A DNA stretch of 64,000 bases from Patescibacteria group bacterium (GTDB lineage Bacteria; Patescibacteriota; JAQUNI01): the NCBI GenBank assembly GCA_028717685.1, contig JAQUNI010000003.1, positions 64,311-128,310 of the forward strand. The letters run 5' to 3'. Each line of letters opens with the position of its first letter. The first letter of the stretch is position 1. The position numbers and the translations under genes are program-made. Positions 16,547 through 63,059 of this stretch are shown one piece after another. The notes below the pieces were generated by a model. The model searched no databases and had not been told where the DNA came from. It saw nothing but the letters and a program-made list of their open reading frames with translations.

Positions 16547-17200
16547 TTAAGACAAAAGCATTTTTTTTCTAAACACAATCATTTGTCCTTTTGGCATAAT
16601 GCCAAAATAGCCCTTATTCCATTTATAATTTACTAATTCAAAATTATGCTTTTTACAAATATTGATAAGTGTTTTTTTAGTCAAGAATCTAATATGGGGA
16701 TTATTCGGATAAAAGAATTTATCCCAAAAAAATGTAGCAATGATAATTTTTTTCAATAAATTAAAATCTGTGGTTGTAATACAAAAGAAACCATTCTTTT
16801 TTAACACCCTATTAATTTCCGATAGACATCTATCAATATCTAATAAGTGCTCAATTACTTCTACAGCGAAAACAGTATCAAAAGAATTATCTTGAAAGCT
16901 TAAACTTTCAAGATCTTCTTGTTTAAAGATTAAATTTTTATATTTATTTTTTCCGATTTCTAATGCTTTTTTTGATAATTCAGAGGCAACAGCCTTTTTT
17001 ATAATTGTGGTTTTTGAATTTAAAAAGTTTAAAAATGTACCATCGCCAGCGCCTACATCTAAAACGGTTTTACCAATGTAGTTTTTAAAAAATTCTAAAT
17101 GCCATAGAAGATTTTCCTCCGTCCATTGAGGGGGTAAATATAACATACCCCCGTTTATATTTTTATTCCAATATTTATCATAATAATTTTTATCTTTCAT
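16547..17200 (-). CDS. class I SAM-dependent methyltransferase
   Basis: VLDVGAGDGTF motif I. Confidence 0.7.
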   Translation of the reverse strand: MKDKNYYDKYWNKNINGGMLYLPPQWTEENLLWHLEFFKNYIGKTVLDVGAGDGTFLNFLNSKTTIIKKAVASELSKKALEIGKNKYKNLIFKQEDLESLSFQDNSFDTVFAVEVIEHLLDIDRCLSEINRVLKKNGFFCITTTDFNLLKKIIIATFFWDKFFYPNNPHIRFLTKKTLINICKKHNFELVNYKWNKGYFGIMPKGQMIVFRKKMLLS

Positions 17201-17203
17201 AAT

Positions 17204-18340
17204 TTAATAATATTTGATAATGGAATTTATATTTTTTTCTGAAAAATTTGTCTCAGCATATCTTCTGCAATTTTGAGATAATCTCAAATATAATTCTTTA
17301 TTGATGTACAATTTTTCTATCGCGGCTTTAATATTTTCAACAGTTGGATCTAGTAATAGTGAAACACTCTTATCCAATGCCTCCGGGATTCCGCCTCTAT
17401 TTGATCCAACAACTGGTAGTCCGCAGGCCACGGCTTCAATTATTGATCTACCAAATCCCTCCTCATATTGTGAAGGAGCGCAAAAAAGATCTGCTATATT
17501 ATAATATTTGTACATTATTTTGTTTTCGACGGACCCAATAAATTTCAAATTACTTAATTCTCTTTCTTGCTCTTTTAAAAATTTTTCCTCCGGACCATTA
17601 CCAACAAAAACAAAATTAATTTGAGGCAATCTTTTTGCCACTTTAACCAAGACTTTTACCCCCTTTTTTTCTAGCAGTCTTCCTGCAAAAAGAACCGTAA
17701 ATTTATCCGCAATATTTAGTTTGTTCCTCAACAAAGTTTTATTTAGAGGTTTGAAAATATTGAGGGCAATCCAATGTTTAAATAAGTCCAATTTTGCTTT
17801 GTGTAGACCAAAAGAGATTAATTCATTATATGATCCTTTGGATAAACATAGAACTTTATCAGTTTTATTTAATATGTAGACAATTCTTTTCGCTGTTTTT
17901 GAATCTTTGTCCAATTCATAGATAGCATGGATGCTAACAATTAATTTTTTATGGAATAATTTTTTTAAAATTCCTCCTATTAAAGCGGCGTTGAGGCCGT
18001 GGGCATGGATTACATCTATTCTATTTTTATTAGTTAAGATCCAAATAAATACTCTGCAGAATAAATATGGTGTTAAATATAAAAAGTCAAGAAGGGGAAA
18101 CTTTTCTACTTTATGAAAAAAGTTTTTGCCAGACCATCTATATCTTTTTATATAGATATTTTTACCTTTCTTTTCGCGAGTTGATGCCTTTATTGAGCTG
18201 GTTAGGGGTGAGTAAGTTTGGACAAAGATATAATAGCCCAAATCATCTAATTTTTTCACCAAATCATCTAGATGTGTTTCTACGCCGCCTACGTTTGGGC
18301 TAAAGAAAGGAGTTAAAATTAATACTTTTTTATTTTTCAT
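17204..18340 (-). CDS. GT4 glycosyltransferase
   Basis: LILTPFFSPNVGGVETHLDDL; paralog of 10992..12182. Confidence 0.75.
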   Translation of the reverse strand: MKNKKVLILTPFFSPNVGGVETHLDDLVKKLDDLGYYIFVQTYSPLTSSIKASTREKKGKNIYIKRYRWSGKNFFHKVEKFPLLDFLYLTPYLFCRVFIWILTNKNRIDVIHAHGLNAALIGGILKKLFHKKLIVSIHAIYELDKDSKTAKRIVYILNKTDKVLCLSKGSYNELISFGLHKAKLDLFKHWIALNIFKPLNKTLLRNKLNIADKFTVLFAGRLLEKKGVKVLVKVAKRLPQINFVFVGNGPEEKFLKEQERELSNLKFIGSVENKIMYKYYNIADLFCAPSQYEEGFGRSIIEAVACGLPVVGSNRGGIPEALDKSVSLLLDPTVENIKAAIEKLYINKELYLRLSQNCRRYAETNFSEKNINSIIKYY

Positions 18341-18378
18341 AATTTAAAAAATTTTACTCAAAATTTTGCAAATGGCGA

Positions 18379-19818
18379 TTAAGACATTGCTGATTTCGTT
18401 CCCCCTTGAGTTATTGCTTGAAAGGCGGCCTTTAGGAGTCTTGCATCTTCACGAAGAAAATCGAAGTTGCTCAAATCCCACCAGATTCTTCTTAAAATCC
18501 ATTCGGGGTTGAGGTAAAATCTGCGGTAAGCTTGCTTTTTGGCTTTTACTAAATCTTCTAGTGTCAGGTCGCGGGGAATATACTTGGGCCAAATTGATTT
18601 GAACTCATCCCCCAATTCCCCTCTGATGTACCGATCAATTAAATTAATATTGATTTTTCCCTCTTCAACGCCAGTTTTGTACAAATCCGCTCCAGGCATA
18701 ATAACAGTTATATGTATACCCATGACATCCACCTTAGAAATTAGACCAAAATTGACTGTGTCTTTAATTTCTTTCTTAGTTTCTCCAGGAAAACCTAGCA
18801 TCAGAAAAATGTTGCTTTGAATGCCGTACTTTCTGCACCATCTAATCGCGTTAAAGATATCTCGATTGTTAACATTTTTGTGGATGACTTCATTACGGAT
18901 TCTTTCATTGCCAGACTCAACACCGAAGAGTAGGTTATTGCAGCCAGCTTTTGCCATTAATTTAATCAATTCTTCGTTAACACTATTTGCCCTAGTCATT
19001 GCGCCCCACGTAGCGTTTAATCCCTTTTTGATTAATAATTGGCAAAAATTTTTAATATTTTCTCGATTTAAACTAAAAGTGTCATCATGGAAATGGAATT
19101 TTCCATTATATTGATTATATATAGTTTCCATTTCCTTAATGATGTTCTCTGCCGATCGAAAACGATAGTTTGTTTTATGGACAGGCCGACTGCAAAAACA
19201 GCAATGAAAAGGACAGCCACGTGAGCCAATCATTGAGGCTCTTTTATAAATTGCCGCGGCATCGTTTGTCAATTTGGTTTCAACTCCTCTGTGATAATTA
19301 GAAACATCGGTCAAATGTCGGGCGGGAAATGGTAAATCGTCAAGATTTTGTATTGGTTCTGCATAAAATACTCCTTTCACACGCTTGCCAGCTAATACTT
19401 TCTGAACAATTTTCAACATAGTGAGCTCTCCTTCACCAATAACATAAAAATCAAAAATCGGGAATCGCCGGGCGAAATCCGGATCTGCACTGATGTGGGG
19501 ACCACCTAAACCAACCATGGGACCATGGTTCCCCCACTCCTTCTTCATCTCCGAGGCTAACCGATAAGCAGAACGAATACTGGGTGATAAAGCGGATAAG
19601 CCAACGACTTTAGGATTTTCCTTCTCGATTTCTTGCATTAGTTTTTTTAGAGTTAATCCTTGCACTGTGACGTCGTACAACTTAACCGAAATATTATGTT
19701 TCTCTAAATAAGCAGCAATATAAAGGAGTCCTAAAGGAGGATCGCTGACTTCATCGCCCATCGGCTCATTTTTTCTGCTAAAAGTTATAGGACAATTAAT
19801 TAATAAAACTTGCGTCAT
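18379..19818 (-). CDS. cobalamin-binding-domain radical SAM enzyme (class B type)
   Basis: N-terminal Rossmann-like B12-binding region followed by GCPFHCCFCS (CX3CX2C). Confidence 0.8.
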   Translation of the reverse strand: MTQVLLINCPITFSRKNEPMGDEVSDPPLGLLYIAAYLEKHNISVKLYDVTVQGLTLKKLMQEIEKENPKVVGLSALSPSIRSAYRLASEMKKEWGNHGPMVGLGGPHISADPDFARRFPIFDFYVIGEGELTMLKIVQKVLAGKRVKGVFYAEPIQNLDDLPFPARHLTDVSNYHRGVETKLTNDAAAIYKRASMIGSRGCPFHCCFCSRPVHKTNYRFRSAENIIKEMETIYNQYNGKFHFHDDTFSLNRENIKNFCQLLIKKGLNATWGAMTRANSVNEELIKLMAKAGCNNLLFGVESGNERIRNEVIHKNVNNRDIFNAIRWCRKYGIQSNIFLMLGFPGETKKEIKDTVNFGLISKVDVMGIHITVIMPGADLYKTGVEEGKININLIDRYIRGELGDEFKSIWPKYIPRDLTLEDLVKAKKQAYRRFYLNPEWILRRIWWDLSNFDFLREDARLLKAAFQAITQGGTKSAMS

Positions 19819-19840
19819 AAAATGAATTCAGAAAAATATT

Positions 19841-20407
19841 TTATGTTTTTTGTTTGCAGGCATAGATTGCGCGTTTTTTGATTGAATAGTATTTTAGGAA
19901 GAGAACAAGGGCAGCGCTTGTGGTCGGAATGAAAATGAGGTCGCTTACTAAATTATTGCGCAAGAAAGGCAGGCCCATAAAGTAGCATTGGATTAACCCT
20001 AGCAAAGTATGGGGATACATATCCCAGAGCAACCAAACCCCAAAGTTAGTATAAAGATAGAAGAATAAAGAAGCTGCTATTCCCATCCCCGTCAGGCTTA
20101 AAATAAACTTATAACTGTATCCCCTCTTTTTGCGCACGAGCCAGCCGAAAAAACCAATCATTGCCCAGGCTGACCAAGTGAAGATTAAGATTAGATCGTT
20201 GCCAATATACATATCAGTTAAAGCGATAATGGTGAGCGGAACGATGACGGTATATGCGCCTCCCAAGAGAGAACCAGCCAGAAGACTGGCTACCATTACG
20301 GTTTCCACATTCGGGATATCTTTGAGAATAATCCGACCTATAGCGCCAAAAGCAATAAGGAAAATAGCGATTATGAGCTTAATTTTTGAAATTCGTTTGG
20401 CAAGCAT
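19841..20407 (-). CDS. 6-TM small membrane protein, ECF-transporter S-component-like (candidate vitamin/B12 capture)
   Basis: 188 aa, six hydrophobic helices; context only. Confidence 0.35.
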   Translation of the reverse strand: MLAKRISKIKLIIAIFLIAFGAIGRIILKDIPNVETVMVASLLAGSLLGGAYTVIVPLTIIALTDMYIGNDLILIFTWSAWAMIGFFGWLVRKKRGYSYKFILSLTGMGIAASLFFYLYTNFGVWLLWDMYPHTLLGLIQCYFMGLPFLRNNLVSDLIFIPTTSAALVLFLKYYSIKKRAIYACKQKT

Positions 20408-20428
20408 AAGTTTAGTTTGGAGAAGAAT

Positions 20429-20884
20429 TTAGAAAGAACTCTCTTCAAATCTAAATTCTATTTTGTCATCAGGCGATACTTTTTGTTCCGTAACGCCTAC
20501 AGGCGCCATTTGCCCATTCACATAATAGAGCCAATATTTATTGTCCTGACCATTTTTGATTCCATCAATGGCTTCAATCAACGTCCCCAAATCGTATTGT
20601 TTAGTTTCTAAATTGATTTCATTTTGATTAGCTAATTTTTCCAAAAGATTATAGACCGTTTCCTCAGGCAGAAATTCTAAAGTAAAATTTTTTACTTGAT
20701 CATTACCGAAATTAATAGAAATGGTTGCTTCTTTTTTGGAAATATCAGAGGGGGAGGTTCGGAGATTTTGGGCAGCATCTTGTTCAGCTGGTTTTTGGTT
20801 AAGATTAGTTTGGCTTCCACAGCCGCCGAGCAGCAAAAGGGAGATTATGAACAAAGCAGAAAGAGTAATATTTTTTCTTTGCAT
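20429..20884 (-). CDS. lipoprotein with DUF4430 / transcobalamin-beta-domain-like C-terminus
   Basis: lipobox LLLGGC; C-terminal KYWLYYVNG...DDKIEFRF motif. Confidence 0.5.
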   Translation of the reverse strand: MQRKNITLSALFIISLLLLGGCGSQTNLNQKPAEQDAAQNLRTSPSDISKKEATISINFGNDQVKNFTLEFLPEETVYNLLEKLANQNEINLETKQYDLGTLIEAIDGIKNGQDNKYWLYYVNGQMAPVGVTEQKVSPDDKIEFRFEESSF

Positions 20885-20930
20885 AAATTTAACATTAATT
20901 ATGGCATTATAACTTAGATTTGGTTAGAGA

Positions 20931-21734
20931 TCAAATAAAGGCATTATCTAAAGCCTGGGGACAAGGACAGGCGCGACGTTTTGGTATTTTTTCAATCATC
21001 TTTAAAATTAATTTTTTTACTTTCTGATTATTCTTTTGAAAAACTCTTAATACCTCCGCCGTAGTTACCGGTTTTATATCTTGATAGCCCTCCAATCCTG
21101 TATCATAATCCGTAATTAAGGCTATATTAACATAGCACATAGCCAGTTCTCGAGCTAAAACTATCTCTGGATAGACAGTCATATTGACCACTTGCCAGCC
21201 TTGGGTTTGAAACCATTTACTTTCTGCCCGCGTAGAGAAACGAGGACCTTGGATGACCACAATTGTCGCTTCCTCGTGATGAGAAATTTTTAATTCGGCG
21301 CAGGTTGTTATGGCTAATTTTCTTAAAACTGGACAATAGGGATCGGCCATTCCGATGTGGGCGACGCGGGGACCATTAAAAAAAGTATCCGCTCGATCTC
21401 GCGTGCGATCCACAAACTGGTCGCAAATAACAAAATCACCGGGTTGAATCTTGGGGGTAAGACTGCCTGAAGCGCAAGGCGCAATAATTTGTTTGACCCC
21501 TATTTTTTTAAATGCCCAAAGATTCGCCTGATAAGGAATTTTATGCGGCGGGAGTTCGTGCTTTTCGCCGTGGCGGGGTAAAAACGCAATACTCTTTCCT
21601 TTATATTTTCCAATCGTAAGAGGACCAGAAGGTTTACCAAAAGGAGTATCTATTTTTATTTTTTTCGCTTGGGAGATTAAAGAATAGAAACCAGAACCGC
21701 CAAAGACGCCAATTTCTGCTTTAAAAAGGGGCAT
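20931..21734 (-). CDS. mtnP: S-methyl-5'-thioadenosine (and 5'-deoxyadenosine) phosphorylase, MTAP family
   Basis: IGVFGGSGFY...TPFGKPSGPL...IIAPCASGSL MTAP signature. Confidence 0.85.
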   Translation of the reverse strand: MPLFKAEIGVFGGSGFYSLISQAKKIKIDTPFGKPSGPLTIGKYKGKSIAFLPRHGEKHELPPHKIPYQANLWAFKKIGVKQIIAPCASGSLTPKIQPGDFVICDQFVDRTRDRADTFFNGPRVAHIGMADPYCPVLRKLAITTCAELKISHHEEATIVVIQGPRFSTRAESKWFQTQGWQVVNMTVYPEIVLARELAMCYVNIALITDYDTGLEGYQDIKPVTTAEVLRVFQKNNQKVKKLILKMIEKIPKRRACPCPQALDNAFI

Positions 21735-21739
21735 AGTAG

Positions 21740-22258
21740 TTAGGTATTTAATTTTAGAAGCACATGTTTTTTATATCCTCTAATTTTTCGCTTGCCATCA
21801 AGATAGATGAGTTCAGCTAAAAGGGCAATGCCTATAATTTTACCTTGCATCTTTTTGACCAGTTTTATTGTCGCCGCGAGCGTGCCGCCAGTGGCAAGGA
21901 CATCATCCACGATCAAAACCCTTTCCCCTTCCTTAATTGTATCGGTATGCATCTCTAGAATATTTTTTCCATATTCTAAATCATAAGTCTGTTGAATGAC
22001 TTGGCGGGGCAGTTTACCCTTTTTGCGCACAATGGAAATACCCGCGTTTAGTTTATAGGCGACTCCGGCGGCGAGCAAAAAGCCACGCGCATCAATCCCC
22101 ACCACTTTTTGAATTTTTTTCTTTCGGAAAGGTTGGACAAGTTTATCGATAGTATAATGATAAGCCCGCGCGTTTTCTAAAAGAGGAGTAATGTCTTTAA
22201 AACTAATCCCCTTTTTAGGAAAGTCAGGAATGGCGCGAATAAATTTTTTTAAATCCAT
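21740..22258 (-). CDS. apt: adenine phosphoribosyltransferase
   Basis: VLIVDDVLATGGTLAATIKL PRPP-binding motif, 172 aa. Confidence 0.85.
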   Translation of the reverse strand: MDLKKFIRAIPDFPKKGISFKDITPLLENARAYHYTIDKLVQPFRKKKIQKVVGIDARGFLLAAGVAYKLNAGISIVRKKGKLPRQVIQQTYDLEYGKNILEMHTDTIKEGERVLIVDDVLATGGTLAATIKLVKKMQGKIIGIALLAELIYLDGKRKIRGYKKHVLLKLNT

Positions 22259-22300
22259 ATTTATATTGGACTAAACAGAATTAAAATTTTTGCAAAATGG

Positions 22301-23233
22301 TTATTTTTTGGCAATTACCTTTATCATTGGCCAAAATAATCTGCTGTTGTTTGCTATTTTAATGAAAGCATTTTTTAGTAATCTGGAGGAAATAAAATCA
22401 AAAGTTAATTTGACATTAAATTTACCTATAAGAACATCTTTAAACCCTGCTTGCTTGTGCATTTTTTTTAGGGTTGACCCTAAGAAAGAAAGTTCATAAC
22501 CAAAGATCATATATTTTCCTTGTAATACCTTGATATGAATAAATTCCGCTATTTGTTTTAAAATTGGAAAATAAGGAATGTTGCCCCAAATTTGACGATA
22601 TGTTAAGGAACCAAGATTTAAACAGGGAACCGCATTGAAAGAAATACCATCTTTTTTTAAGACACGATATAATTCATTAATACATTGCTGAGTATTTTTG
22701 AAATGTTCAATAACCCCTCCACCGTAGATCAAATCAACGCGATTTGTTTTAATCGGCAGGTGAGCAACATCTCCTTGAATAAATAAGTAATTTTTAATGC
22801 CGTGAGCTTGTAGAATTTTTTTAGCAACTTTAAGCGCGCTAAGGCTAAAATCTAGACCAATAACCAAATTTACCTTTTTGGCTAATACTTCCCCTGTATA
22901 GAAATAACCACTGCCGATTTCTAGAAATGTTAGATCCTTATTAATCTTTTTAACCTCAGTTATTTGGGGATATGTATTAGGCAAATTTTGTTTTTTAAAT
23001 GTTCTATAAAGTTTCAGATAAGTTTTATTTTTAAAATTATTTTGATATGATTTTTCCCACTTAGATCGGGATAATTCCGCATCGGGAGGGAGGGGGGGCA
23101 TAATACAGAAGATGTCATTATCAATTATTTTATACTTTCTGCCACAACTCTTACAAATCAGAAATTCTTTTTTTCTCTCTAAATCAGATTTACATTTATA
23201 ACAACAAATATAATCTAATGGTTGGGTAGGCAT
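22301..23233 (-). CDS. class I SAM methyltransferase with N-terminal Trm112-like zinc ribbon
   Basis: CCYKCKSDL...CKSCGRKY then LEIGSGYFYTGE motif I. Confidence 0.7.
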   Translation of the reverse strand: MPTQPLDYICCYKCKSDLERKKEFLICKSCGRKYKIIDNDIFCIMPPLPPDAELSRSKWEKSYQNNFKNKTYLKLYRTFKKQNLPNTYPQITEVKKINKDLTFLEIGSGYFYTGEVLAKKVNLVIGLDFSLSALKVAKKILQAHGIKNYLFIQGDVAHLPIKTNRVDLIYGGGVIEHFKNTQQCINELYRVLKKDGISFNAVPCLNLGSLTYRQIWGNIPYFPILKQIAEFIHIKVLQGKYMIFGYELSFLGSTLKKMHKQAGFKDVLIGKFNVKLTFDFISSRLLKNAFIKIANNSRLFWPMIKVIAKK

Positions 23234-23256
23234 AAGGTTTAGATGAGAACTTTAGT

Positions 23257-23370
23257 AAACCCCGTTAGAGAATTTCGTTCTCTAACCCCGTCTAGAAATT
23301 TATTTCTAACGGGGTCAGCATCCATATTTTTCCTACCACCGATTTCGTCAGCGGCTTTCTCTAACGGGGT
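23257..23370. repeat. cluster of palindromic elements (half-site CCCCGTTAGAAA / TTTCTAACGGGG)
   Basis: gttagagaa/ttctctaac and ccccgtctagaaat/atttctaacgggg hairpins plus a third ttctctaacgggg; related copies at 24454-24482, 41393-41481, 48324-48349, 58490-58533. Confidence 0.7.
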
Positions 23371-23423
23371 AAATTATTTCTTTAGTATTTTTTGATTACT
23401 TCTACTTTATCCAGCTTTTCCAT

Positions 23424-24437
23424 TTATATCTGCCAACTCTTCCTTGATTGAATTTTGGTTTTAAAAATTATAGATTTGATCTTAATCCCGCCATAAATAA
23501 AGCAGGATAAAAAACAGGCTAGAGGATGAAAAAACCAAGCAGAGTCTTGTTTTTTCCAATACCCTTTTAAGCTTTGAAAAAGGGTGGGAAAGAAAGTCAG
23601 AGAATAAAGGACAAATTTAACTAATTTCCCTCGTGGAAAATTTTTCCACTGATAAGTTCTTAAGCCCTTTGTTTGATAGTAAAGATAATCCTTGATTCTT
23701 CTTTTTTGTTTTTGGATAAAACTTCCTATGTTACCGGCAAATATATGGATAATGCCTATTTTAACTTTAGCATAAGTGGAATATCCTTTTTGAGTGAGGC
23801 ACCAAATTATATCAATATCAAAAAAGTAGTCTTTAAATGGAACTTTTTCTAAATACTTTTTCCTAATTAAGAACCCATTAGCTCCTATAGTAGGAATTTG
23901 GGGTGGTATTAGTTTAAATTTTAGGTAATTTCCCCTGTCTTCACTTACAACAGGAAAACCGGTCCATTTTTCAGAAAGGAGGTTTTCGCGGTCATAATTG
24001 CCTAAAAAATAACAAAGGGGGTCATTCATTCCCATTAAAGCGGAATATCGGGTTATCATACCATCTTTTTTGCGATATGTGTAGCGGATAGGCTCCGTCC
24101 CTATTATTTCCGGATCAGAAAAAGGGGCAACCATTCTTTTTAGCCAATCACAAGAAGGTAAAATATTGTCGGAGTCAATTAAAGCAATAATATTATTTTG
24201 CGCTTGTTTTACTCCTATGGCTTTTCCGGCCTCCCCGGTTTTTAGAGGATTTTTGAGAATTTTATTAGTGTATTGATAGGCAATTTTTAAGGTATTATCT
24301 TGGGAACCAGCATCAATAATAATAATTTCTATCCGATCTCGGGGATAATCTTGCCTAATTATTGAGTGCAAGCATTGAGAGAGAGTTTTTGTGGAATTAT
24401 AAGTAGGAATAATAACAGAGATAGAAGGAAGATTCAT
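23424..24437 (-). CDS. GT2 glycosyltransferase
   Basis: SVIIPTYNSTKTL...IIIDAGSQDNT. Confidence 0.75.
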   Translation of the reverse strand: MNLPSISVIIPTYNSTKTLSQCLHSIIRQDYPRDRIEIIIIDAGSQDNTLKIAYQYTNKILKNPLKTGEAGKAIGVKQAQNNIIALIDSDNILPSCDWLKRMVAPFSDPEIIGTEPIRYTYRKKDGMITRYSALMGMNDPLCYFLGNYDRENLLSEKWTGFPVVSEDRGNYLKFKLIPPQIPTIGANGFLIRKKYLEKVPFKDYFFDIDIIWCLTQKGYSTYAKVKIGIIHIFAGNIGSFIQKQKRRIKDYLYYQTKGLRTYQWKNFPRGKLVKFVLYSLTFFPTLFQSLKGYWKKQDSAWFFHPLACFLSCFIYGGIKIKSIIFKTKIQSRKSWQI

Positions 24438-24453
24438 AACTTTTTTATTTTTG

Positions 24454-24482
24454 CCCCGTTTAGAAATAAATTTTTAACGGGG
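24454..24482. repeat. palindromic element copy (ccccgtttagaaat aaa tttttaacgggg) between DUF457 stop and GT2 start
   Basis: 13-bp arms; begins with TAAACCCCG overlapping the upstream stop codon. Confidence 0.7.
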
Positions 24483-24483
24483 T

Positions 24484-24906
24484 TTATTCTCCTTCACTAA
24501 ATACTCTAAATTTTTTATATATGCGGTAAATTAAGAAGTAAGAAAAAGTTTTGAGTTCATTGCCAATATCATCAAGAATAAGATGCAGGGTGAACGCGCA
24601 GGCAAGAGCGACTAAAATGGCTCGCTCATGGAATTGCCAGGTGATGAGCCAAAGCAGAATGACAATTTCGTACGAATGTAATGGCACCAGGACTTTTGAA
24701 TTTCGGCGCATATAGTTTTCCGGATGCAAAAATTCTTTGATGTTGCAAGGATTGCGGGGTCTGCTTTTCCAGAAGTCCAAAAGATGATCAAGGTCAAGAA
24801 TAACGCCAGTGAAAAGAAGTGCAATCGCGCCAGTTAAAGAGCGGGTAAAATAGTAGAAGGTGAAGGCTAGGAGGGTTGAGGAAAGAACATGTATTTTTAT
24901 TCGCAT
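24484..24906 (-). CDS. membrane-bound metal-dependent hydrolase, YdjM/DUF457-like
   Basis: ILDLDH, PLHSYE, LHLILDD motifs spaced as in the YdjM family; 3 TM. Confidence 0.45.
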   Translation of the reverse strand: MRIKIHVLSSTLLAFTFYYFTRSLTGAIALLFTGVILDLDHLLDFWKSRPRNPCNIKEFLHPENYMRRNSKVLVPLHSYEIVILLWLITWQFHERAILVALACAFTLHLILDDIGNELKTFSYFLIYRIYKKFRVFSEGE

Positions 24907-24911
24907 ATTTT

Positions 24912-26390
24912 TTAATAATTTTGTTCAAAGTCGGCAAGATGGGAGAACACAGCTTTAGCCCCGCGGGCAAGATATTTCAAATCATTGAGGTCGCGCAGCG
25001 AGACAATCTGGCGCAGGATAAATTCAGGATGGAAAGCGACTTTATAGGTGTCCTGGACAAATTTTTGCAATTGCGCGGAGGAAAAAGAGGTTTGCATTAT
25101 TGCCTCGCGCATATCATAACGGTTCCAGTCTTCAGAAGTGAGCCATTTTTTTTGCTGGCATTCACGAAACAAAGGGGTACCCGGGTAAGGGATGACAATA
25201 GTGGCTTGGAGTGTTTTAGCATAGCCTTTGCGCAGGAGATATTTTCCCAAGCGCACAGTTTGCCGCGCTTCTTCTTCGGTCTCCCACGGATAACCAAACA
25301 TAATTGTTACATGGGGAGACAATCCTGTTTTACGCGCCAGCTTGCAGGATGAGATGATCTTCTCTACCGTCATATTTTTACTTATCTTGTTTAACGTTTT
25401 CTCGCTGGCTGATTCTAAACCAAAAAGCAAAAAGCGGAAATTTGCCTTACGCATTAACCCATATTCTTTTTTGTTAAGGGCCCCGAAGCGCATATTGCAA
25501 TCCAAAATCACTTTTTTATTATAGCCGCGTTCAATCATCCCGCGGCAGAATTCTTGCAGCCATTCCCCTATCGGGAAAGTGCCTGTATCATCCATTATTT
25601 CCTTAATTTGATATTTTTTAATTAATTCTCCAATTTCATCCAAGACATTCTCTGGGGTGCGGGTGTGGTATTTTGGATAAAGCGTGGTCCAAGAACAAAA
25701 AGTGCACTCGTGATGCCAACAATCGCGGCCAGCCATAATATAAGTTCCTGGTGTGCGGGAGAAATTGCCTACATCGTAGGCATAATTTTGCCATTCTGTT
25801 AGTTCGCGGTCAATGAAGGGCAGGGTATTGAGATTATGGTTGAGCGCAAATTTTCCCGTATTTTTAATCTCTTCATTATCGCGGTAATAAATTCCTGGCT
25901 CTAGATTTTGGGGGACAGGTTCTAGATTGGGTTTTAGATTTTGAAGGAAGTTTAAAAGCAGAAAATCGTAATCGCCGCCAGTTAAAACAAAGTCCACTTT
26001 GGAGTTCTGGAATGATTCTTCAGGCAACGCCGTGACATGGTCGCCGACAAGAATCGTTTTTAATGCAGGGATTTCTTTTTTTAACGCATTGGTGATTTTC
26101 CAGTGCCTTTTTACGGTTGGAGTTTTCGTTTCCATTACCACAATGTTTGGTTGAATTTTTTTCACAAATTCCAACCATTCCGCGTATCTCATTTCTTCGG
26201 CAATGCCGTCTTTCCAAATCACCTTAAAACCATTTTTTTGAAGTAAAGTGGCAGCTTGCGCCGGCACCACTGGATAAATGGGGCAATGGCGGCGAAACCA
26301 TTGGAATTGGCGGTTCTGGGATAATAGAGGATAACCTTTTTTAGATGGCAGAGGTGGATAAGTAATTAAAGTTTTCAAGTGTTCTGACAT
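24912..26390 (-). CDS. cobalamin-binding-domain-like radical SAM enzyme, second copy, with CX4CX2C spacing
   Basis: N-terminal Rossmann-like region; GRDCWHHECTFCSW; 492 aa. Confidence 0.7.
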   Translation of the reverse strand: MSEHLKTLITYPPLPSKKGYPLLSQNRQFQWFRRHCPIYPVVPAQAATLLQKNGFKVIWKDGIAEEMRYAEWLEFVKKIQPNIVVMETKTPTVKRHWKITNALKKEIPALKTILVGDHVTALPEESFQNSKVDFVLTGGDYDFLLLNFLQNLKPNLEPVPQNLEPGIYYRDNEEIKNTGKFALNHNLNTLPFIDRELTEWQNYAYDVGNFSRTPGTYIMAGRDCWHHECTFCSWTTLYPKYHTRTPENVLDEIGELIKKYQIKEIMDDTGTFPIGEWLQEFCRGMIERGYNKKVILDCNMRFGALNKKEYGLMRKANFRFLLFGLESASEKTLNKISKNMTVEKIISSCKLARKTGLSPHVTIMFGYPWETEEEARQTVRLGKYLLRKGYAKTLQATIVIPYPGTPLFRECQQKKWLTSEDWNRYDMREAIMQTSFSSAQLQKFVQDTYKVAFHPEFILRQIVSLRDLNDLKYLARGAKAVFSHLADFEQNY

Positions 26391-26393
26391 TTT

Positions 26394-27434
26394 TTACATT
26401 CTTAATTTGCTTTTTAGGGTTTTTGTAAATAACAGACCTTGGAGGAATTTTACGCCGTAGACTAAATGGGTTAAGAATATATAAGGAATGACCAATAAGC
26501 CGACTAAAGGATTTTTTTCTCGGAAAGCAGACTCAATCGCCGCCCAGAGCATTATGCCAAGATATAGCAGTAAGATGATAATATCACCATATAGGAAATG
26601 AATATAACCATCCTTTTTTGCTAAGTAGCCTATTAGCGGGTTCGCGACTAATAATAGCACAAAAAGACTGGGAATAAAGTAAGCAAATTTCAAGGAGGTT
26701 GCGGGGAATTTTTTGGCAAAGAAACCGCGATGCAAGCCATAACCCGCAATTTGTCGCAGGTGGCTTAAGAGAGTTTTGCGGCGATGATGGTAAACAATGA
26801 GCTTAGGGTCATAAATTATATTACCGCCTGTCTGAGTTAGATCCAGACAGAATTTTGTGTCTTCTCCGGGCCAATATTGGGAGTTAAAACCCCCTATTTT
26901 TTGGAATATGTGTTTGCGCACTAAAAAATTTACCGAAGGCCAGTCGGTCACGGTTTTCCTTTTTTTACCTGGAATATAACGGTCCGCAATTCCTCCCCAG
27001 AAAGAGGAGGCAAGACATGCGCCGGAGGTTTTTTGGTGCAAGGAATCGTCTTGGGGGGTAATGGCAGGACCGCCTAGGGCGGCAATCCTGGGGTCTTGAA
27101 AATTTTTTTCCGCTTGCGACAGCCAGTCATTTTGTGGATAAGCGTCATCATCCAGAAAAGCGAGAATCTCTCCTTCCGCGTATTGAAGCGCTAGCGTTCT
27201 TTTCTCTGCGGGACCGATTTTCCCTGTGGGGATAATTTTCGTTTTGGGGAATGCTTCTTCTGACTTTGTGTCAGGAAAAATTAGAATTTCAAAATTTTGA
27301 TGGGTAAGGTTTAAAAGGTGGCGAACTGTTTCGTGGATATAATCATTGATTCTGACTACTGGGATGATGATAGAAAATTGAGGCATCCTTGAAAGTATAA
27401 AATTAAAAATGAAAAATGTAAAATGACAGATCAA
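26394..27434 (-). CDS. GT2 glycosyltransferase fused to C-terminal TM helices (true start probably MPQFS at ~27386)
   Basis: FSIIIPVV...ILIFPD, DDDAYP motif, three C-terminal TM segments. Confidence 0.7.
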   Translation of the reverse strand: MICHFTFFIFNFILSRMPQFSIIIPVVRINDYIHETVRHLLNLTHQNFEILIFPDTKSEEAFPKTKIIPTGKIGPAEKRTLALQYAEGEILAFLDDDAYPQNDWLSQAEKNFQDPRIAALGGPAITPQDDSLHQKTSGACLASSFWGGIADRYIPGKKRKTVTDWPSVNFLVRKHIFQKIGGFNSQYWPGEDTKFCLDLTQTGGNIIYDPKLIVYHHRRKTLLSHLRQIAGYGLHRGFFAKKFPATSLKFAYFIPSLFVLLLVANPLIGYLAKKDGYIHFLYGDIIILLLYLGIMLWAAIESAFREKNPLVGLLVIPYIFLTHLVYGVKFLQGLLFTKTLKSKLRM

Positions 27435-27478: not shown

Positions 27479-28432
27479 TTAATCGCGTTTAGTTTTTAGC
27501 TTTTCAAAATATATAATCGTTTTTTTTAAGCCATCTTCTAAATTTACCTTTGGCGTCCATCCTAATTTTGTGCGCGCTAGAGTGATATCTGGCTTTCTTT
27601 TTACGGGGTCGTCTTCGGGGAGAGGATAGAATTTGATTTTAGAGTGAGAGCCGGTGAGTTCTATCACTTTTCTGGCTAAATCATCAATTTTGGTTTCCAG
27701 GGGATTTCCCAGATTAAAAGGTCCAATTTCTTTACTCTTCATCATCTTGATTAAACCAATGACTATATCATCAACATAGCTGAAAGAGCGGGTTTGCTTC
27801 CCTTTGCCATAAACGGTAATAGGTTTATTATCTAGAGCCTGGTTGATAAAGTTAGGAATCACGCGGCCATCATTATCGCGCATACCCGGACCGTAAGTGT
27901 TAAAAATTCGGACAATTTTCGCGTTGAGTCTGTATTTTCGGACATAACTCATAATCAGACTTTCGGCAAAACGTTTACCCTCATCATAACAAGAGCGGGG
28001 ACCTAAGGTATTAACATAGCCGCGGTAGCTTTCTTTCTGGGGATGTACTTGAGGATCACCATAAACTTCAGAGGTGGAGGCTTGTAAAAAGATGGCTTGA
28101 TGTTCCATTGCTAAATCTAAAAGACGGTTCACTCCCTCGGAGCAGGCTTTTAAAATCTTAGTAGGATAACGCGGAAAATCCACGGGAGAAGCGGGACAGG
28201 CTAGGTTATAAATTTCGTCAATTTTATCCGGCAAAGGAGGGATGTTCTCCGTAATATCGTGATCCATAAAGACAAAGTTAGGGTCAGAAAACCACTCCTT
28301 GATATTGTCGTAAGATCCGGTAATAAGGTTATCAATGCACAGGATTTTATTCTTTTCCTGAAGCAGATAGCGAATCAGATTAGAGCCGATAAATCCCGCC
28401 CCGCCGGTGACTAAGATAGTTTTTTTGTCCAT
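27479..28432 (-). CDS. uxs: UDP-glucuronate decarboxylase (UDP-xylose synthase)-like SDR
   Basis: TILVTGGAGFIGSNL...YDEGKR...FNTYGPGM near-consensus UXS. Confidence 0.8.
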   Translation of the reverse strand: MDKKTILVTGGAGFIGSNLIRYLLQEKNKILCIDNLITGSYDNIKEWFSDPNFVFMDHDITENIPPLPDKIDEIYNLACPASPVDFPRYPTKILKACSEGVNRLLDLAMEHQAIFLQASTSEVYGDPQVHPQKESYRGYVNTLGPRSCYDEGKRFAESLIMSYVRKYRLNAKIVRIFNTYGPGMRDNDGRVIPNFINQALDNKPITVYGKGKQTRSFSYVDDIVIGLIKMMKSKEIGPFNLGNPLETKIDDLARKVIELTGSHSKIKFYPLPEDDPVKRKPDITLARTKLGWTPKVNLEDGLKKTIIYFEKLKTKRD

Positions 28433-28562: not shown

Positions 28563-29324
28563 TCAATTTTTTTGATATTTTTTTGATATATTTTTCCGTT
28601 TTTCCGATAGTTGATCATAATACCGCAATATTTTTAAACGATAGAAAACAGCCATAGTGTCCCAAAATGATTTATTGATTGCTGATAGACAAATAGAGCT
28701 GTGGTTGAAATCCATTTCAAGATTGACTGGAATTTCCATAATTTTGTAACCATAATGGTGAGCCAAGACGAGCAGTTCAATGTCAAAAGCATATTGCTTC
28801 ACGAGGACCTTGGGGAAGATTTCGGCAAGCACTTCGCGTTTAAATAATTTTAAGCCCACTTGGCTGTCTTTGATATCCATTTGAAAGAGGGTTTTAACCA
28901 TAAGCTGCGCCGCGCGGCTCAAGACTTGACGCTTTAGGGGGTAAATCACTCGCGACTGCGGATGTCTCTTTGAGCCGATAATCACGGGTACTTTGAATTT
29001 CTGATAGCAATTGATAATCTGAATGATGTGCGCGGGGTCAAATTCCAGACCAGCATCAAAGAAGATAATTAAATCGCCGCTTGTATGATTGAAGCCATAT
29101 TTTAGGGCATAACCCTTTCCCCTATTTTGAGGATAGCCTAGAATGATGATAGAGTGAGAGTTGTAAGCAGAGGCAATCTCGTAGGTCTTATCTTGTTTGC
29201 CATCGCAAATTACAATAATTTCCGTGAGGTACGGGAGCGATTGAATGGTATTCTGGACCGCCTCAATTGTTTGGCTAATTTTGTCTTGCTCGTGATAAGC
29301 AGGAATCAGAATGGAAATTTTCAT
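28563..29324 (-). CDS. GT2 glycosyltransferase (DPM/GtrB-like, soluble)
   Basis: ISILIPAYHEQDKI...FFDAGLEFDP. Confidence 0.7.
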   Translation of the reverse strand: MKISILIPAYHEQDKISQTIEAVQNTIQSLPYLTEIIVICDGKQDKTYEIASAYNSHSIIILGYPQNRGKGYALKYGFNHTSGDLIIFFDAGLEFDPAHIIQIINCYQKFKVPVIIGSKRHPQSRVIYPLKRQVLSRAAQLMVKTLFQMDIKDSQVGLKLFKREVLAEIFPKVLVKQYAFDIELLVLAHHYGYKIMEIPVNLEMDFNHSSICLSAINKSFWDTMAVFYRLKILRYYDQLSEKRKNISKKYQKN

Positions 29325-29329: not shown

Positions 29330-30631
29330 TTACAGAAGATTTGAAGTATTTTTTGATTTATTTAAGGCAAGATTTCCCCTTCTTTCCCAGAAATAGAAAA
29401 TCATCAGTCCTCCGAATAATCCAGCGAGGGAGATCAGGAGATTAAAAACAATTTGTCTGATTGAGCCGTGACGCATTAAAATAAGCAGGATTTCCAAGAT
29501 GCTGGTTGCGATTAAGATATAAATGAATTTAAATTTGTGAACGGAAAGATAATAATTAATTAAGATATTATCCAGCGAGAGGAAAAACATAGTGATAGCG
29601 CTAAAGCCCACTAAAGGGGAAATAACAAGGTAAGAAGAGCCAAAAAGCATCTTAATAATTAGTTGGGGAAAAAGGAAATATGCTATTACCCCTAAGCCTG
29701 AAACAAAGCCGACTATTTTCAGGGACTGTTTTAAAAGATGTTGGTGATCCTTGCCCTTTTTATGCCTTTCCGCCACCATTGGAAACATCACCGCCGCAAT
29801 GGCGCCCGTGGCAAAGAAGATAATTTGGCTTAATTTAGAAAGAGCTGAATAAAGCCCTGCTTCGTGAGCGGAAAAGAAGTGCTTCACCATAATAACGTCA
29901 ATGTTGTAAAGCGCCGTGAGACAGAAGAGGGTAATCAATGCGGGTAAGGCAAAGGATATAATTTTATAATCCTTAATTTTATTTCGCGGAGTGTAAAGAA
30001 AAATGAATCTAAGGGGCAGGAAACTCACTATAAAAGCAATTAAACTCGCGACAACCATTGCGCCCAGCGCGCCATATACTTTTAGGCTCGTCAGAACCAA
30101 AGCCGCGCCCAGAGAGGTTTTAATTAACGCCTCTGTCAACAAATTCCAGGCGAGGGATTTGAAAAGTTGCAAACCCTGAAGGATGCCGCGAGTCGCTGGC
30201 ACTACAAAAGCCAGAAGCAAGATAAAATTCAGAGTCAGAATTAATTTTAAAGAAGGTATTTGCAAGAAATGAGCAAGCCATGGTGCCATAATGCAGAGAG
30301 CCAAGAACACGCCTAAACCCACCAGGATTAAATTTTTTACAAGATATCGCAGTAAAAAATGGAGTTCTCCATAGTTTTTGTTGACTTTCAGATTGCTCGC
30401 GAGTTTAACAATGACCATACTAACGGTGGACATCGGGATGGATAAAATTATACTCACGGAGATTAAGGAGGCTAAAACGCCATAGTCCGCCGGTCCCAAG
30501 GCTCTTCCTGCCACTAGATGAAAAATATAATTCCCCACGCTGGCTGACATTGAGCCAAGGAACAGAATATAACTATTCTTAATTAGCTTATTTTTTTTCA
30601 GTTTCAGGTTAATGGTTTGGAAAATATTCAT
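29330..30631 (-). CDS. wzx: Wzx-like polysaccharide flippase (MOP superfamily)
   Basis: 433 aa, ~12 TM, polysacc_synt-like N-terminus. Confidence 0.7.
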   Translation of the reverse strand: MNIFQTINLKLKKNKLIKNSYILFLGSMSASVGNYIFHLVAGRALGPADYGVLASLISVSIILSIPMSTVSMVIVKLASNLKVNKNYGELHFLLRYLVKNLILVGLGVFLALCIMAPWLAHFLQIPSLKLILTLNFILLLAFVVPATRGILQGLQLFKSLAWNLLTEALIKTSLGAALVLTSLKVYGALGAMVVASLIAFIVSFLPLRFIFLYTPRNKIKDYKIISFALPALITLFCLTALYNIDVIMVKHFFSAHEAGLYSALSKLSQIIFFATGAIAAVMFPMVAERHKKGKDHQHLLKQSLKIVGFVSGLGVIAYFLFPQLIIKMLFGSSYLVISPLVGFSAITMFFLSLDNILINYYLSVHKFKFIYILIATSILEILLILMRHGSIRQIVFNLLISLAGLFGGLMIFYFWERRGNLALNKSKNTSNLL

Positions 30632-31791: not shown

Positions 31792-32496
31792 TCAAACCTC
31801 ACGACCTAATCCCTCCTCCTTTAACCAAGTAAAAAATTCTATAAATTCTTGCGCATTACACGCATATCGCTTAGCATAATCTTCCAGTACCTCTGATTTT
31901 TCTAAAAAAGCAGATAAGGAATTGATCGGTACCTTGCCATTATCCCCGCGCACCAGACAAGCGATAAAAATTTTTTCATAACAACGAAGCAGGATATCAC
32001 TTGGATTTTGCATAATCCAAGCAGCTAGCGAGGCTTTAGTGAGTTTGCCTTTTTCATAAACTCTGCGCGCAGTGATGCCGCTTGAGACGACATCGTCAAC
32101 AACCGCAATATTTGAATCTTTTGGCGCTTGAAAATCAGCAATCCAGGCTTCGGGATTTTTATAACCAAGACGCTCCGCAGCAATATTGACGCCTTGGGCG
32201 ATTTTTAGAGTGCATCGCATAAACTTGGCTCCTTTGCCTGGCCAAATAATTGTTTGGAATAGCTCTGGTTGCCAAATTTTTAAGAGCAGATCATTTAACA
32301 TGTCTGGAGTCAGTATTTGAGATGGCGCTTTAAGTTCGGGAATGTCGTTGCTAAATCCCAATTGATCCAAGCCGATATCGTCAATAAAGATATTACCTTT
32401 TACCCACCAAAATTCGTTCACCACAAGATTCGGTAGTCTATTTCTCACCTTTTCTTGCCAAGACATCTTGATGCCTCCTCTAATTTTTTCTGGCAA
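31792..32496 (-). CDS. phosphoribosyltransferase-domain protein (type I PRTase fold), unknown substrate
   Basis: IAVVDDVVSSGITA PRPP-binding-like motif; 17-nt overlap with the upstream LOG-like gene. Confidence 0.5.
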   Translation of the reverse strand: MPEKIRGGIKMSWQEKVRNRLPNLVVNEFWWVKGNIFIDDIGLDQLGFSNDIPELKAPSQILTPDMLNDLLLKIWQPELFQTIIWPGKGAKFMRCTLKIAQGVNIAAERLGYKNPEAWIADFQAPKDSNIAVVDDVVSSGITARRVYEKGKLTKASLAAWIMQNPSDILLRCYEKIFIACLVRGDNGKVPINSLSAFLEKSEVLEDYAKRYACNAQEFIEFFTWLKEEGLGREV

Positions 32497-33007
32497 TCTT
32501 CATTGCCAGCTTCACTGTTTCTTGCGCGGATCGCGCAACATAATACGGATATTTTCGCCAATTCTCTAATTGCAAGATTGACAAAAAATCCTCGCCAAAA
32601 CCTTTAATGAATATCAAAGGTTTTTGGTAACGGTAGGCAATCGCGAACTCGGCGAGCGTGCCCGCGTCCCCTGGGATCACGATAATCGCGTCAGAACTTA
32701 AAATTCCGGCGAAAATGTAATCGCCAATGTCAACGGGTGTGCAGATTTCTACCGTAACCCAAGGAACGCTTAAACCCCGTTTGCGACCCGGCGTTCCGAC
32801 CACAATGCCGCTGGCTTGATAAGCGCCGCGACAAGCCGCTTCTACCACGCCCGAGCAGCCGCCGGTAATTAAAATCGCTTTGGCGGCCGCTACTGCGCGA
32901 CCAATTTCTTCCGCGAGAGCCAAGGTTGCCTCTTTTCTTCGGCGCCCGCCTCGCAGGTTTTTTTCTTCCGGTCCAATGATGCCGATTTGAATGTTTCTTT
33001 GCTTCAT
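32480..33007 (-). CDS. LOG/SLOG-family Rossmann protein (TIGR00725-like nucleotide N-glycosidase/binding)
   Basis: ILITGGCSGVVEAACRGA and PGDAGTLAEF motifs. Confidence 0.55.
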   Translation of the reverse strand: MKQRNIQIGIIGPEEKNLRGGRRRKEATLALAEEIGRAVAAAKAILITGGCSGVVEAACRGAYQASGIVVGTPGRKRGLSVPWVTVEICTPVDIGDYIFAGILSSDAIIVIPGDAGTLAEFAIAYRYQKPLIFIKGFGEDFLSILQLENWRKYPYYVARSAQETVKLAMKIARKN

Positions 33008-33079
33008 ATTTTTCAGTTAAATAAAAAATCTCTTCCCTTGCGGGAAGAGGATGAAATGATTTTTAAAATCCAAATAAAA

Positions 33080-33430: not shown

Positions 33431-33479
33431 TTTATCTAAGTAAAGTATAGCAAGGCAAATTTTTTTGTCAAGAGATCAA

Positions 33480-33515: not shown

Positions 33516-33521
33516 AAATTT

Positions 33522-63058: not shown

Positions 63059-63059
63059 A

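Follow-up and report, generated by a model that had tools for sequence, protein, structure and literature searches.

Cobalamin-type radical SAM enzymes, a probable corrinoid uptake pair and MtnP/Apt salvage genes in an envelope-glycan locus of a Patescibacteria genome

Introduction

In the HpnI-HpnK-HpnJ pathway to the cyclitol ether of hopanoids, a family 2 glycosyltransferase (GT2) acts before a B12-type radical S-adenosylmethionine (SAM) enzyme contracts a sugar ring, and in purine salvage the enzyme Apt converts adenine to AMP. Bacteria of the candidate phyla radiation (CPR, or Patescibacteria) live on a minimal metabolism and rely on other cells, and the locus described here bears on how they acquire B12 and on what their very large glycan loci produce. 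It lies on contig JAQUNI010000003.1 of a Patescibacteria metagenome-assembled genome (MAG), of which a 64-kb stretch, here called the window, was analysed. Pfam and NCBIfam scans delimit an envelope-glycan locus of about 50 kb, and the interval 16547-27434 forms its middle, with two radical SAM (rSAM) genes, rSAM1 and rSAM2, on either side of the salvage pair MtnP (MTAP) and Apt (APRT) and of two genes encoding DUF4430 and DUF6580 proteins. We favour, with moderate confidence, an explanation in which the rSAM enzymes tailor a glycan, the DUF4430 and DUF6580 proteins import corrinoids, and MtnP and Apt act as general salvage enzymes; coupling of the rSAMs to B12 supply is better supported than coupling to by-product salvage.

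Turnover of rSAM enzymes gives 5'-deoxyadenosine (5'-dAdo), which inhibits them, and MtnP cleaves both S-methyl-5'-thioadenosine (MTA) and 5'-dAdo to adenine and (5-deoxy/methylthio)ribose-1-phosphate, a cleavage that a sequence-only reading of this locus had also stated (PMC8102628). The same reading held that methyltransferases release S-adenosylhomocysteine (SAH) or MTA, of which MTA does not apply to those found here: class I enzymes give SAH, which is dealt with by a separate route and is no substrate of MtnP (PMC8102628). DUF4430 is the C-terminal domain of transcobalamins (PMC4350170), and CbrT is the S-component of a proven B12 transporter, the energy-coupling factor (ECF) complex ECF-CbrT (PMC5997447).

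Results

Radical SAM enzymes

All open reading frames (ORFs) across 10992-31587 lie on the minus strand, and the domain scans covered 61 ORFs of the window, drawn from those of at least 110 aa. The genes that carry the argument are listed below by window coordinates.

18379-19818, minus strand: rSAM1, cobalamin-type radical SAM enzyme of an uncharacterised subfamily (Pfam), in the variable part of the locus
19841-20407, minus strand: DUF6580 membrane protein, ECF S-component-like, probable corrinoid transporter (Pfam DUF6580, 105 bits)
20429-20884, minus strand: DUF4430 lipoprotein of 151 aa, probable extracellular corrinoid binder (PF14478, 63.0 bits against a gathering threshold of 23.8)
20931-21734, minus strand: MtnP/MTAP, S-methyl-5'-thioadenosine (and 5'-deoxyadenosine) phosphorylase (NF005876, TIGR01694)
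21740-22258, minus strand: Apt, adenine phosphoribosyltransferase (TIGR01090, NF002636)
24484-24906, minus strand: 140-aa membrane protein, weakly YdjM/DUF457-like, clade-conserved partner downstream of rSAM2
24912-26390, minus strand: rSAM2, HpnJ/BchE-like radical SAM enzyme with a probable B12 domain (Pfam/NCBIfam), in the widely conserved core
26394-27434, minus strand: GT2_b, conserved glycosyltransferase partner of rSAM2 (Pfam Glycos_transf_2, Glyco_trans_2_3)

The sequence-only reading had assigned both rSAMs to the cobalamin-type class. For rSAM1 the assignment stands, as its B12-binding domain (PF02310, 70.8 bits against 32.1) and its Radical_SAM domain (97.3 bits) both pass Pfam gathering thresholds, and its cysteine motif is CPFHCCFC (CX3CX2C). 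No NCBIfam family is reached at its cut-off, the best being PhpK (145 bits), HpnJ (144), ApyD (138) and BchE (130). An AlphaFold2 (AF2) model of rSAM1, with a predicted local distance difference test score (pLDDT) of 89.9, finds AprD4, TsrM, MgmA/QCMT, CysS, TokK and OxsB as top folds, superposes on the B12-bound structures of TsrM, TokK and OxsB, and has AprD4 with bound paromamine as its best match (template-modelling (TM) scores 0.69/0.72); AprD4 is also the best sequence match in the PDB (69 bits). For rSAM2 the assignment is partly borne out: the Radical_SAM match (66 bits) and end-to-end alignments to the B12-rSAM families HpnJ (residues 39-485, 158 bits against a cut-off of 578) and BchE (115 bits) favour it, but the B12-binding match, at 24.0 bits, is under the same gathering threshold. 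To judge from these alignments, rSAM2 may well use cobalamin. Its cysteine triad, CWHHECTFC (CX4CX2C), has a non-canonical spacing. No activase of anaerobic ribonucleotide reductases appears among the NCBIfam matches listed for either enzyme (the best 25 of 33 for rSAM1 and all 21 for rSAM2), the top matches of both being B12-rSAM families.

The surroundings of rSAM2 recur widely. A metagenome scan with an rSAM2 alignment recovered at least 534 relatives, and neighbourhoods were drawn from 80 kept loci, 78 of them outside the clade of the window. A GT2_b-like GT2 lies directly upstream of rSAM2 in 55 of the 64 kept loci that have an upstream gene, and in the window the two genes are separated by 3 bp. 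Homologues of a flippase (31 of the 80 loci) and of a 253-aa GT2 (28 of the 80) are found mostly two to four genes upstream of rSAM2. In the window these belong to a conserved upstream core:

27479-28432, minus strand: nucleoside diphosphate (NDP)-sugar dehydratase/epimerase (Pfam/NCBIfam)
28563-29324, minus strand: 253-aa ArnC/PpgS-like polyprenyl-phosphate GT2 (Pfam/NCBIfam)
29330-30631, minus strand: Wzx-type flippase (Pfam/NCBIfam)

The company of the flippase, the polyprenyl-phosphate GT2 and GT2_b suggests that the substrate of rSAM2 is a lipid-linked sugar. The best NCBIfam match of GT2_b is MftF (99 bits, below its cut-off), and the same scan gave it no match to HpnI. This very common yet uncharacterised GT2_b-rSAM2 pair, conserved in hundreds of metagenomic loci, is new. 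Downstream of rSAM2, the 140-aa ORF has homologues 53-80% identical in four related loci (L008, L009, L012 and L043); it had been called a DUF457 membrane hydrolase, but its matches are weak (DUF6122, 19.8 bits, below the cut-off; YdjM flagged 'weak' in homologues).

Methylation, which the sequence-only reading had thought probable, dehydration and ring contraction are each conceivable as the reaction of either enzyme, with a sugar or glycan as the probable substrate. It is possible, if not our first choice, that neither is a C-methylase, and that rSAM1 is an AprD4-like sugar 1,2-diol dehydratase and rSAM2 an HpnJ-like enzyme that contracts or rearranges the ring of a sugar installed by GT2_b. 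The AprD4 fold and sequence matches of rSAM1 and the HpnJ match as the best of rSAM2 in NCBIfam speak for this, as does the tight GT2_b-rSAM2 pairing, which resembles HpnI-HpnJ; O- or N-methylations could be left to the separate class I methyltransferases of the locus. The scores, however, fall far under the family cut-offs, with rSAM1 at 93 and rSAM2 at 33 bits against the 500 of the AprD4 family (NF033070); the methylases TsrM, MgmA/QCMT, CysS and TokK match the rSAM1 model almost equally well; GT2_b lacks an HpnI match; and AprD4 uses no cobalamin (PMC12931638), whereas rSAM1 has a strong B12-binding domain. Outright membership of the HpnI-HpnJ family was rejected, both rSAMs scoring far below the HpnJ (TIGR03471) cut-off of 577.6 bits and GT2_b without an HpnI match, and no hopanoid genes occur in the window.

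The rSAM2 family itself is variable (P0243-P0341): the spacing of its first two cysteines ranges from CX3 to about CX20. Five full-length members (P0248, P0250, P0253, P0256 and P0273) lack all three cysteines and therefore may be inactive paralogues, and at 890-972 aa P0241, P0242 and P0244, the top representatives, match in two to three stretches, which suggests insertion or fusion.

Homologues of rSAM1 (42-57% identity) sit in rSAM-rich glycan loci of other Patescibacteria. Around the nearest of them (45-57%, L004-L007) there are many rSAM genes, and no MTAP, APRT, DUF4430 or DUF6580 gene within up to 10 kb where the contig extends, so rSAM1 is not part of a conserved block with these genes; at its present position it occurs only in this genome and in near-identical contigs. 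In two of these glycan loci (L006 and L007), three to five rSAM genes, mostly with B12-binding domains, lie within 11-17 kb together with PMT_2/GT-C proteins and methyltransferases, and such rSAM-rich loci seem common in Patescibacteria. The variable part of a sister locus (L008:14993-15798, extending past the locus end) encodes a 723-aa fusion of B12-binding, radical SAM and class I methyltransferase domains.

DUF4430 and DUF6580

Between MTAP and rSAM1 lie two genes that the sequence-only reading had passed over. The DUF4430 protein begins with a lipobox (LLLGGC). The DUF6580 protein matches only DUF6580 in Pfam, and a few of its homologues also carry PF12822. Its AF2 model (pLDDT 84.6) adopts the six-helix S-component fold, with BtuM in complex with cyanocobalamin (8C7P) as top match (TM 0.60/0.63; Foldseek E-value 0.08, weak), and the 12 best Foldseek matches are S-components or the S-like CbiM, bar one designed protein. 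The best PDB match of the family profile is CbrT (6FNP_A), over the full length and with a weak E-value of 0.24; single-sequence PDB searches with either protein returned nothing useful.

Genomic context and regulation point the same way. A GTDB scan with a DUF6580 alignment gave 80 loci, nearly all from Patescibacteria, in at least 44 of which DUF4430 lies directly upstream of DUF6580. Within 10 kb of DUF6580 there is a ribonucleotide reductase in 53 of these loci, NrdR in 43 and the corrinoid adenosyltransferase CobO/BtuR in 37, and the associated reductase passes the equivalog cut-offs of the B12-dependent NrdJ. In one lineage (L015) a Cobalamin riboswitch (RF00174, 57.9 bits) stands between CobO and DUF4430, directly upstream of the pair; in another, a Falkowbacteria MAG (L031:3244-6820), an adenosylcobalamin (AdoCbl) riboswitch (RF01482, 51.4 bits) heads a four-gene operon for a 610-aa protein, a 171-aa protein, DUF4430 and DUF6580. 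The 610-aa protein joins a Prenyltrans/SQHop_cyclase-like alpha/alpha-toroid to a DUF4430 domain, the full two-domain architecture of transcobalamin. Fold, neighbours and regulation thus link the pair to B12, and because NrdJ and CobO are its neighbours and cobalamin riboswitches precede it in two lineages, DUF4430 and DUF6580 are a probable corrinoid uptake pair. In the window the nearest B12-type enzymes to the pair are the rSAMs, rSAM1 starting 22 bp after DUF6580, and in a distant lineage (L076) an rSAM2-like gene overlaps the start of DUF4430-DUF6580, with a flippase and a GT2 adjoining.

Our literature searches found nothing on DUF6580 or on DUF4430 with DUF6580 as an importer, and nothing relevant linking cobalamin, rSAM enzymes, ribonucleotide reductase or transporters in CPR/Patescibacteria. 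The candidate importer, widespread in Patescibacteria and present in one MAG labelled DPANN (L062), is new, as is its move, in the clade of the window, from the side of NrdJ/CobO to B12-rSAM glycan genes. The DPANN MAG, labelled Candidatus Iainarchaeum (L062:1-20471), has NrdJ-CobO-DUF4430-DUF6580 arranged as in Patescibacteria, which could reflect shared ecology, gene transfer or mis-binning. Three further observations concern the surveyed loci: in L016 a 1174-aa NrdJ (6426-9950), interrupted by a LAGLIDADG intein, immediately precedes DUF6580; a 1190-aa ORF, 69% identical by tblastn, occupies the position of that NrdJ in L019; and in a Woesebacteria MAG a group I intron (RF00028, 56.7 bits; L087:12367-12587) follows DUF4430-DUF6580 at a distance of about 2 kb.

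Salvage genes and conservation of the block

Both salvage genes are securely identified. MTAP passes two equivalog cut-offs (NF005876, 352.4 bits against 306; TIGR01694, 294.9 against 274.85), Apt passes those of TIGR01090 (216.8 against 185.85) and NF002636 (222 against 125), and 5 bp separate the two genes. From 5' to 3' on the minus strand the order is flippase, 253-aa GT2, NDP-sugar dehydratase/epimerase, GT2_b, rSAM2, the 140-aa ORF and GT2_a, then a zinc-ribbon methyltransferase, Apt, MtnP, DUF4430, DUF6580, rSAM1, a GT4 gene and a second methyltransferase, MT_a. Two rSAM genes do flank mtnP and apt, as had been proposed, but DUF6580, DUF4430, a methyltransferase, a GT2 and the 140-aa ORF lie between them as well. 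Neighbouring genes are 3-46 bp apart, with two wider intervals, one of 190 bp behind GT2_a and one of 158 bp behind the last methyltransferase, and the run of short gaps spans 23233 down to 16547; the genes of the island are probably co-transcribed. Its remaining members are:

16547-17200, minus strand: MT_a, class I SAM methyltransferase of 217 aa (Methyltransf_11, 76 bits; GC 0.26)
17204-18340, minus strand: GT4 glycosyltransferase (Glycos_transf_1, 129 bits; Glyco_transf_4, 70 bits)
22301-23233, minus strand: class I SAM methyltransferase with an N-terminal CxxC...CxxC zinc ribbon (Methyltransf_31, 66 bits; GC 0.31)
23424-24437, minus strand: GT2_a glycosyltransferase (Pfam Glycos_transf_2, 84 bits)

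The Pfam matches confirm the two class I methyltransferases that the sequence-only reading had named. Its Trm112-like zinc ribbon survives in part, the CxxC...CxxC cysteine pairs being visible in the translation of 22301-23233 but the Trm112p score (17.2 bits) lying below the cut-off of 22, and in place of three GT2 genes the interval holds two GT2 genes and the GT4 gene at 17204-18340. The second-best NCBIfam match of GT4 is an rSAM-associated glycosyltransferase family (TIGR04157, 90 bits, below its cut-off), and a GT2_a homologue directly follows rSAM2 homologues in 10 metagenomic loci. The four genes in 16547-18340 and 22301-24437 have a GC content of 0.26-0.34, against 0.39-0.43 for their neighbours and the backbone, and the zinc-ribbon methyltransferase gene is missing at the same position in three relatives (L008, L009 and L092); sister loci lack all four genes at these positions, which, like the low GC, fits recently acquired cassettes.

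With DUF6580 and MtnP as anchors, one clade was recovered (L008, L009/L010/L013, L012, L043 (= L095) and L092), in which rSAM2 is 60-93% and MtnP 71-91% identical to the window proteins, rSAM2 reaching 91-93% in L008 and L043. Its members share the backbone GT2_b-rSAM2-140aa-Apt-MtnP-DUF4430-DUF6580, into which glycan cassettes are set differently: L008 has none, L009 and L092 have five genes between MtnP and DUF4430, and the window has GT2_a and the methyltransferase inserted after the 140-aa ORF and ahead of Apt. Of the rSAM-mtnP-apt-rSAM synteny looked for in relatives, the order from rSAM2 to APRT-MTAP is therefore conserved within the clade, but the rSAM1 flank is not.

Overall, three lineages have MtnP, with or without Apt, inside rSAM-rich glycan loci, the gene order differing between them, and three more have it in other surroundings. 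Two Paceibacterota loci (L175/L176) have the order GT2-Apt-MtnP-GT4-rSAM1 homologue-second B12-rSAM-methyltransferase-SPASM rSAM, in which GT4 and the rSAM1 homologue, adjoining each other in L175, are 43% and 42% identical to the window proteins. In L135 (2978-6243) and L117 an MtnP homologue (54% identity) lies without Apt between a PIG-V-like GT-C gene and the flippase of an rSAM2 locus, its coding region overlapping or abutting its neighbours. This recurrent placement of MtnP/Apt in rSAM-rich glycan loci is new and suggestive, if unproven. In genomes this small, glycan loci present large targets.

Locus setting

The envelope-glycan context proposed in the sequence-only reading is well founded, with a flippase, Wzy, Wzz, many glycosyltransferases and sugar-nucleotide enzymes present; the remainder of the locus comprises more GT2 and GT4 genes, a DegT aminotransferase, Rml-type enzymes and UDP-glucose dehydrogenase. 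Beyond it the window continues into housekeeping genes and a NiFe hydrogenase. The glycan locus has a low-GC end (about 0.30-0.32), where three long ORFs follow one another on the minus strand (877, 563 and 851 aa; 883-7765); they have no Pfam match at E<=1e-4 and may be novel GT-C-like or surface proteins. Proteins with SLOG cluster-4 (LDcluster4), Trp-repressor-like and LigD 3'-phosphoesterase domains (32480-33974) are encoded where two glycan sub-regions break, and a TraI_2/topoisomerase zinc-ribbon protein at 35306-36001. A 468-aa fusion (38980-40386) joins an N-terminal HD phosphohydrolase to RmlD (dTDP-4-dehydrorhamnose reductase). The hydrogenase region (58983-63876) encodes the NiFe large subunit, an Oxidored_q6 small subunit and an NAD-binding/Fe-S subunit, and is interrupted by an EamA transporter gene.

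Discussion

In the explanation that we favour, two cobalamin-type rSAMs would tailor a sugar or polyprenyl-linked glycan. rSAM2 would act with its upstream partner GT2_b, in a core that includes the flippase and the polyprenyl-phosphate GT2, while rSAM1 would belong to a swappable cassette with GT4 and a methyltransferase. The DUF4430 surface lipoprotein and the DUF6580 S-component would most likely capture and import corrinoids for neighbouring B12-dependent enzymes, in an organism that presumably lacks corrinoid synthesis of its own. MtnP would split 5'-dAdo, the inhibitory by-product of the rSAMs and probably its main substrate here, to adenine and 5-deoxyribose-1-phosphate, and Apt would turn the adenine back into AMP. 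Both enzymes most likely serve general salvage in the cell, and are not a dedicated, self-contained detoxification device; their place in the locus is shared by descent in one clade, and rSAM-rich loci may favour it slightly.

Several observations weigh against parts of this explanation. The B12-binding match of rSAM2 is below threshold, and enzymes such as AprD4 and ArsL have Rossmann-like domains yet bind no cobalamin (PMC12931638), so a domain match is no proof of binding. Both matches that connect DUF6580 to B12 transporters have weak E-values. No cobalamin riboswitch is found in the window, scanned whole at gathering thresholds, or in L008/L013, the only RNA match at E<=1 within 15.5-28.6 kb of the window being a chance-level one to the DUF805 RNA, and the 64-kb window contains neither an ECF energising module (ABC ATPase, EcfT) nor CobO or NrdJ, so a B12 enzyme encoded elsewhere in the genome could be the client of the DUF pair. 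Counts from promoter and terminator scans equal those in shuffled sequence, which leaves the operon structure unproven. No MtnA isomerase or aldolase for disposal of 5-deoxyribose-phosphate occurs among the 61 ORFs scanned, only MtnP of the dihydroxyacetone phosphate (DHAP) shunt, or 5-deoxyribose salvage, being present in the window. Across the 78 rSAM2-anchored metagenomic loci outside the clade, APRT, DUF4430 and DUF6580 are absent and MTAP appears in one lineage only (L117/L135). MTAP is also found in quite different settings. In other Patescibacteria it stands alone among housekeeping genes in L093 (NusA, H+-PPase and L27), and as an Apt-MtnP pair in L094, where its neighbours encode IF2, a class I aminoacyl-tRNA synthetase and a thioredoxin-reductase-like oxidoreductase; in the non-CPR-like context of L177 it is again alone among housekeeping genes.

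These contexts bear most directly on the proposal of the sequence-only reading, that rSAM-mtnP-apt-rSAM is a dedicated module in which MtnP and Apt were recruited and kept to detoxify and recycle the by-products of local rSAMs and methyltransferases. What speaks for such a module is the order conserved in the clade despite inserted cassettes, APRT-MTAP directly before the GT4, rSAM and methyltransferase genes of L175/L176, the abutment of MTAP on the flippase inside the rSAM2 locus of L117/L135, the number of rSAM genes (up to five) in loci of rSAM1 homologues, and the inhibition of rSAMs by the very 5'-dAdo that MtnP removes (PMC8102628). Most relatives anchored on rSAM2 or rSAM1 nevertheless lack the MTAP-APRT pair, and its genes recur amid translation or other housekeeping functions. 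MTAP is about 60% identical across phyla, as for a core enzyme rather than a specialised paralogue, the SAH released by methyltransferases is no substrate of MtnP, and the window offers no disposal route for 5-deoxyribose-1-phosphate. Enrichment of MTAP near rSAM2 was rejected: one independent lineage in 750 kb of flanks is about what chance predicts (an expectation of about 0.4-0.75, for an assumed genome of about 1 Mb). We thus consider a dedicated module unlikely. The clade order and the two other rSAM-rich lineages are what remains of the claim to a self-contained module, set against the rSAM1 flank, the 78 loci and the housekeeping contexts; as the block is confined to one clade, rSAM2 occurs elsewhere without the pair and MTAP contexts are mixed, the link to by-product salvage is suggestive.

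Less probable still, in our judgement, is that the genes lie together through descent alone, with APRT, MTAP, DUF4430 and DUF6580 as essential housekeeping anchors around which cassettes have recombined, and with an importer that serves NrdJ elsewhere in the genome. O-antigen loci, which recombine between conserved flanking genes, offer an analogy. With some 50 of the 64 kb taken up by glycan genes, the odds that any given gene falls among them are considerable; the cassettes vary between relatives and are lower in GC, the usual company of DUF6580 is NrdJ and CobO, and in both large surveys the association is limited to one clade. This account fits poorly, however, with the translational coupling of an rSAM2-like gene to DUF4430-DUF6580 in the distant L076, with the position of the DUF pair of the clade, away from NrdJ and in the window within 22 bp of a B12-rSAM, and with MTAP in glycan/rSAM loci of two further lineages with different gene orders.

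Returning to the favoured explanation, DUF4430 and DUF6580 are a concrete, testable candidate for corrinoid uptake in CPR bacteria, and cobalamin-type rSAMs emerge as regular components of CPR envelope-glycan loci. If the proposed radical chemistry of GT2_b-rSAM2 is real, C-methylation or ring rearrangement would give these episymbionts unusual surface sugars. Recruitment of by-product salvage genes into rSAM-rich loci is an attractive idea, for which the present data are suggestive. The boldest combination, a 'cofactor in, by-product out' support unit kept under selection, together with a corrinoid importer widespread in CPR and DPANN and undescribed radical sugar chemistry by GT2_b-rSAM2, we regard as doubtful.

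Comparison with described systems

Class B rSAM sugar C-methyltransferases such as GenK and GenD1 share with rSAM1 a B12-binding Rossmann domain joined to an rSAM core, a setting in glycosyltransferase-containing clusters and 5'-dAdo as by-product, and the rSAM1 model superposes on the structures of TsrM, QCMT, CysS and TokK. GenK and GenD1 belong to aminoglycoside antibiotic clusters, whereas the genes described here stand in a CPR bacterium's primary envelope-glycan locus, and no family cut-off is reached. AprD4, to which rSAM1 comes closest both in structure and among PDB sequences, acts on an aminoglycoside sugar, but it works without cobalamin and its family score is far from attained. 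The likeness to HpnI-HpnJ lies in the full-length match of rSAM2 to HpnJ as best family and in the one particular GT2 that almost always precedes it; the difference lies in the flippase and polyprenyl-phosphate GT2 partners found here, in the missing HpnI match and in a score well short of the cut-off.

BtuM, a solitary transporter, and CbrT, which works within ECF-CbrT, have the same six-helix S-component fold as DUF6580, a family tied to B12 riboswitches, NrdJ and CobO; they differ in that identity to DUF6580 is below 20%, with weak E-values, and that no ECF module is nearby. DUF6580 also pairs with a DUF4430 lipoprotein, a pairing that we did not find described for BtuM or CbrT in the portion of the ECF-CbrT report consulted (PMC5997447). 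Transcobalamin and intrinsic factor have DUF4430 as their beta-domain (PMC4350170), and the toroid-DUF4430 protein behind the AdoCbl riboswitch of L031 matches them more fully; the window protein, by contrast, is a 151-aa bacterial lipoprotein with the beta-domain only, and a cobalamin binder by prediction. The MtnP-based salvage of 5'-dAdo in the DHAP shunt, a paralogue of methionine salvage, shares an equivalog-level MtnP with this locus. It differs in that here MtnP is coupled to Apt and the window has no MtnA isomerase or aldolase, because of which only the adenine half is visibly recycled. The parts of the locus are thus members or distant relatives of known kinds, namely class B rSAMs, MtnP, Apt, S-component transporters and the transcobalamin domain, and it is common for the genes of a cofactor importer to cluster with those of the enzymes that it supplies.

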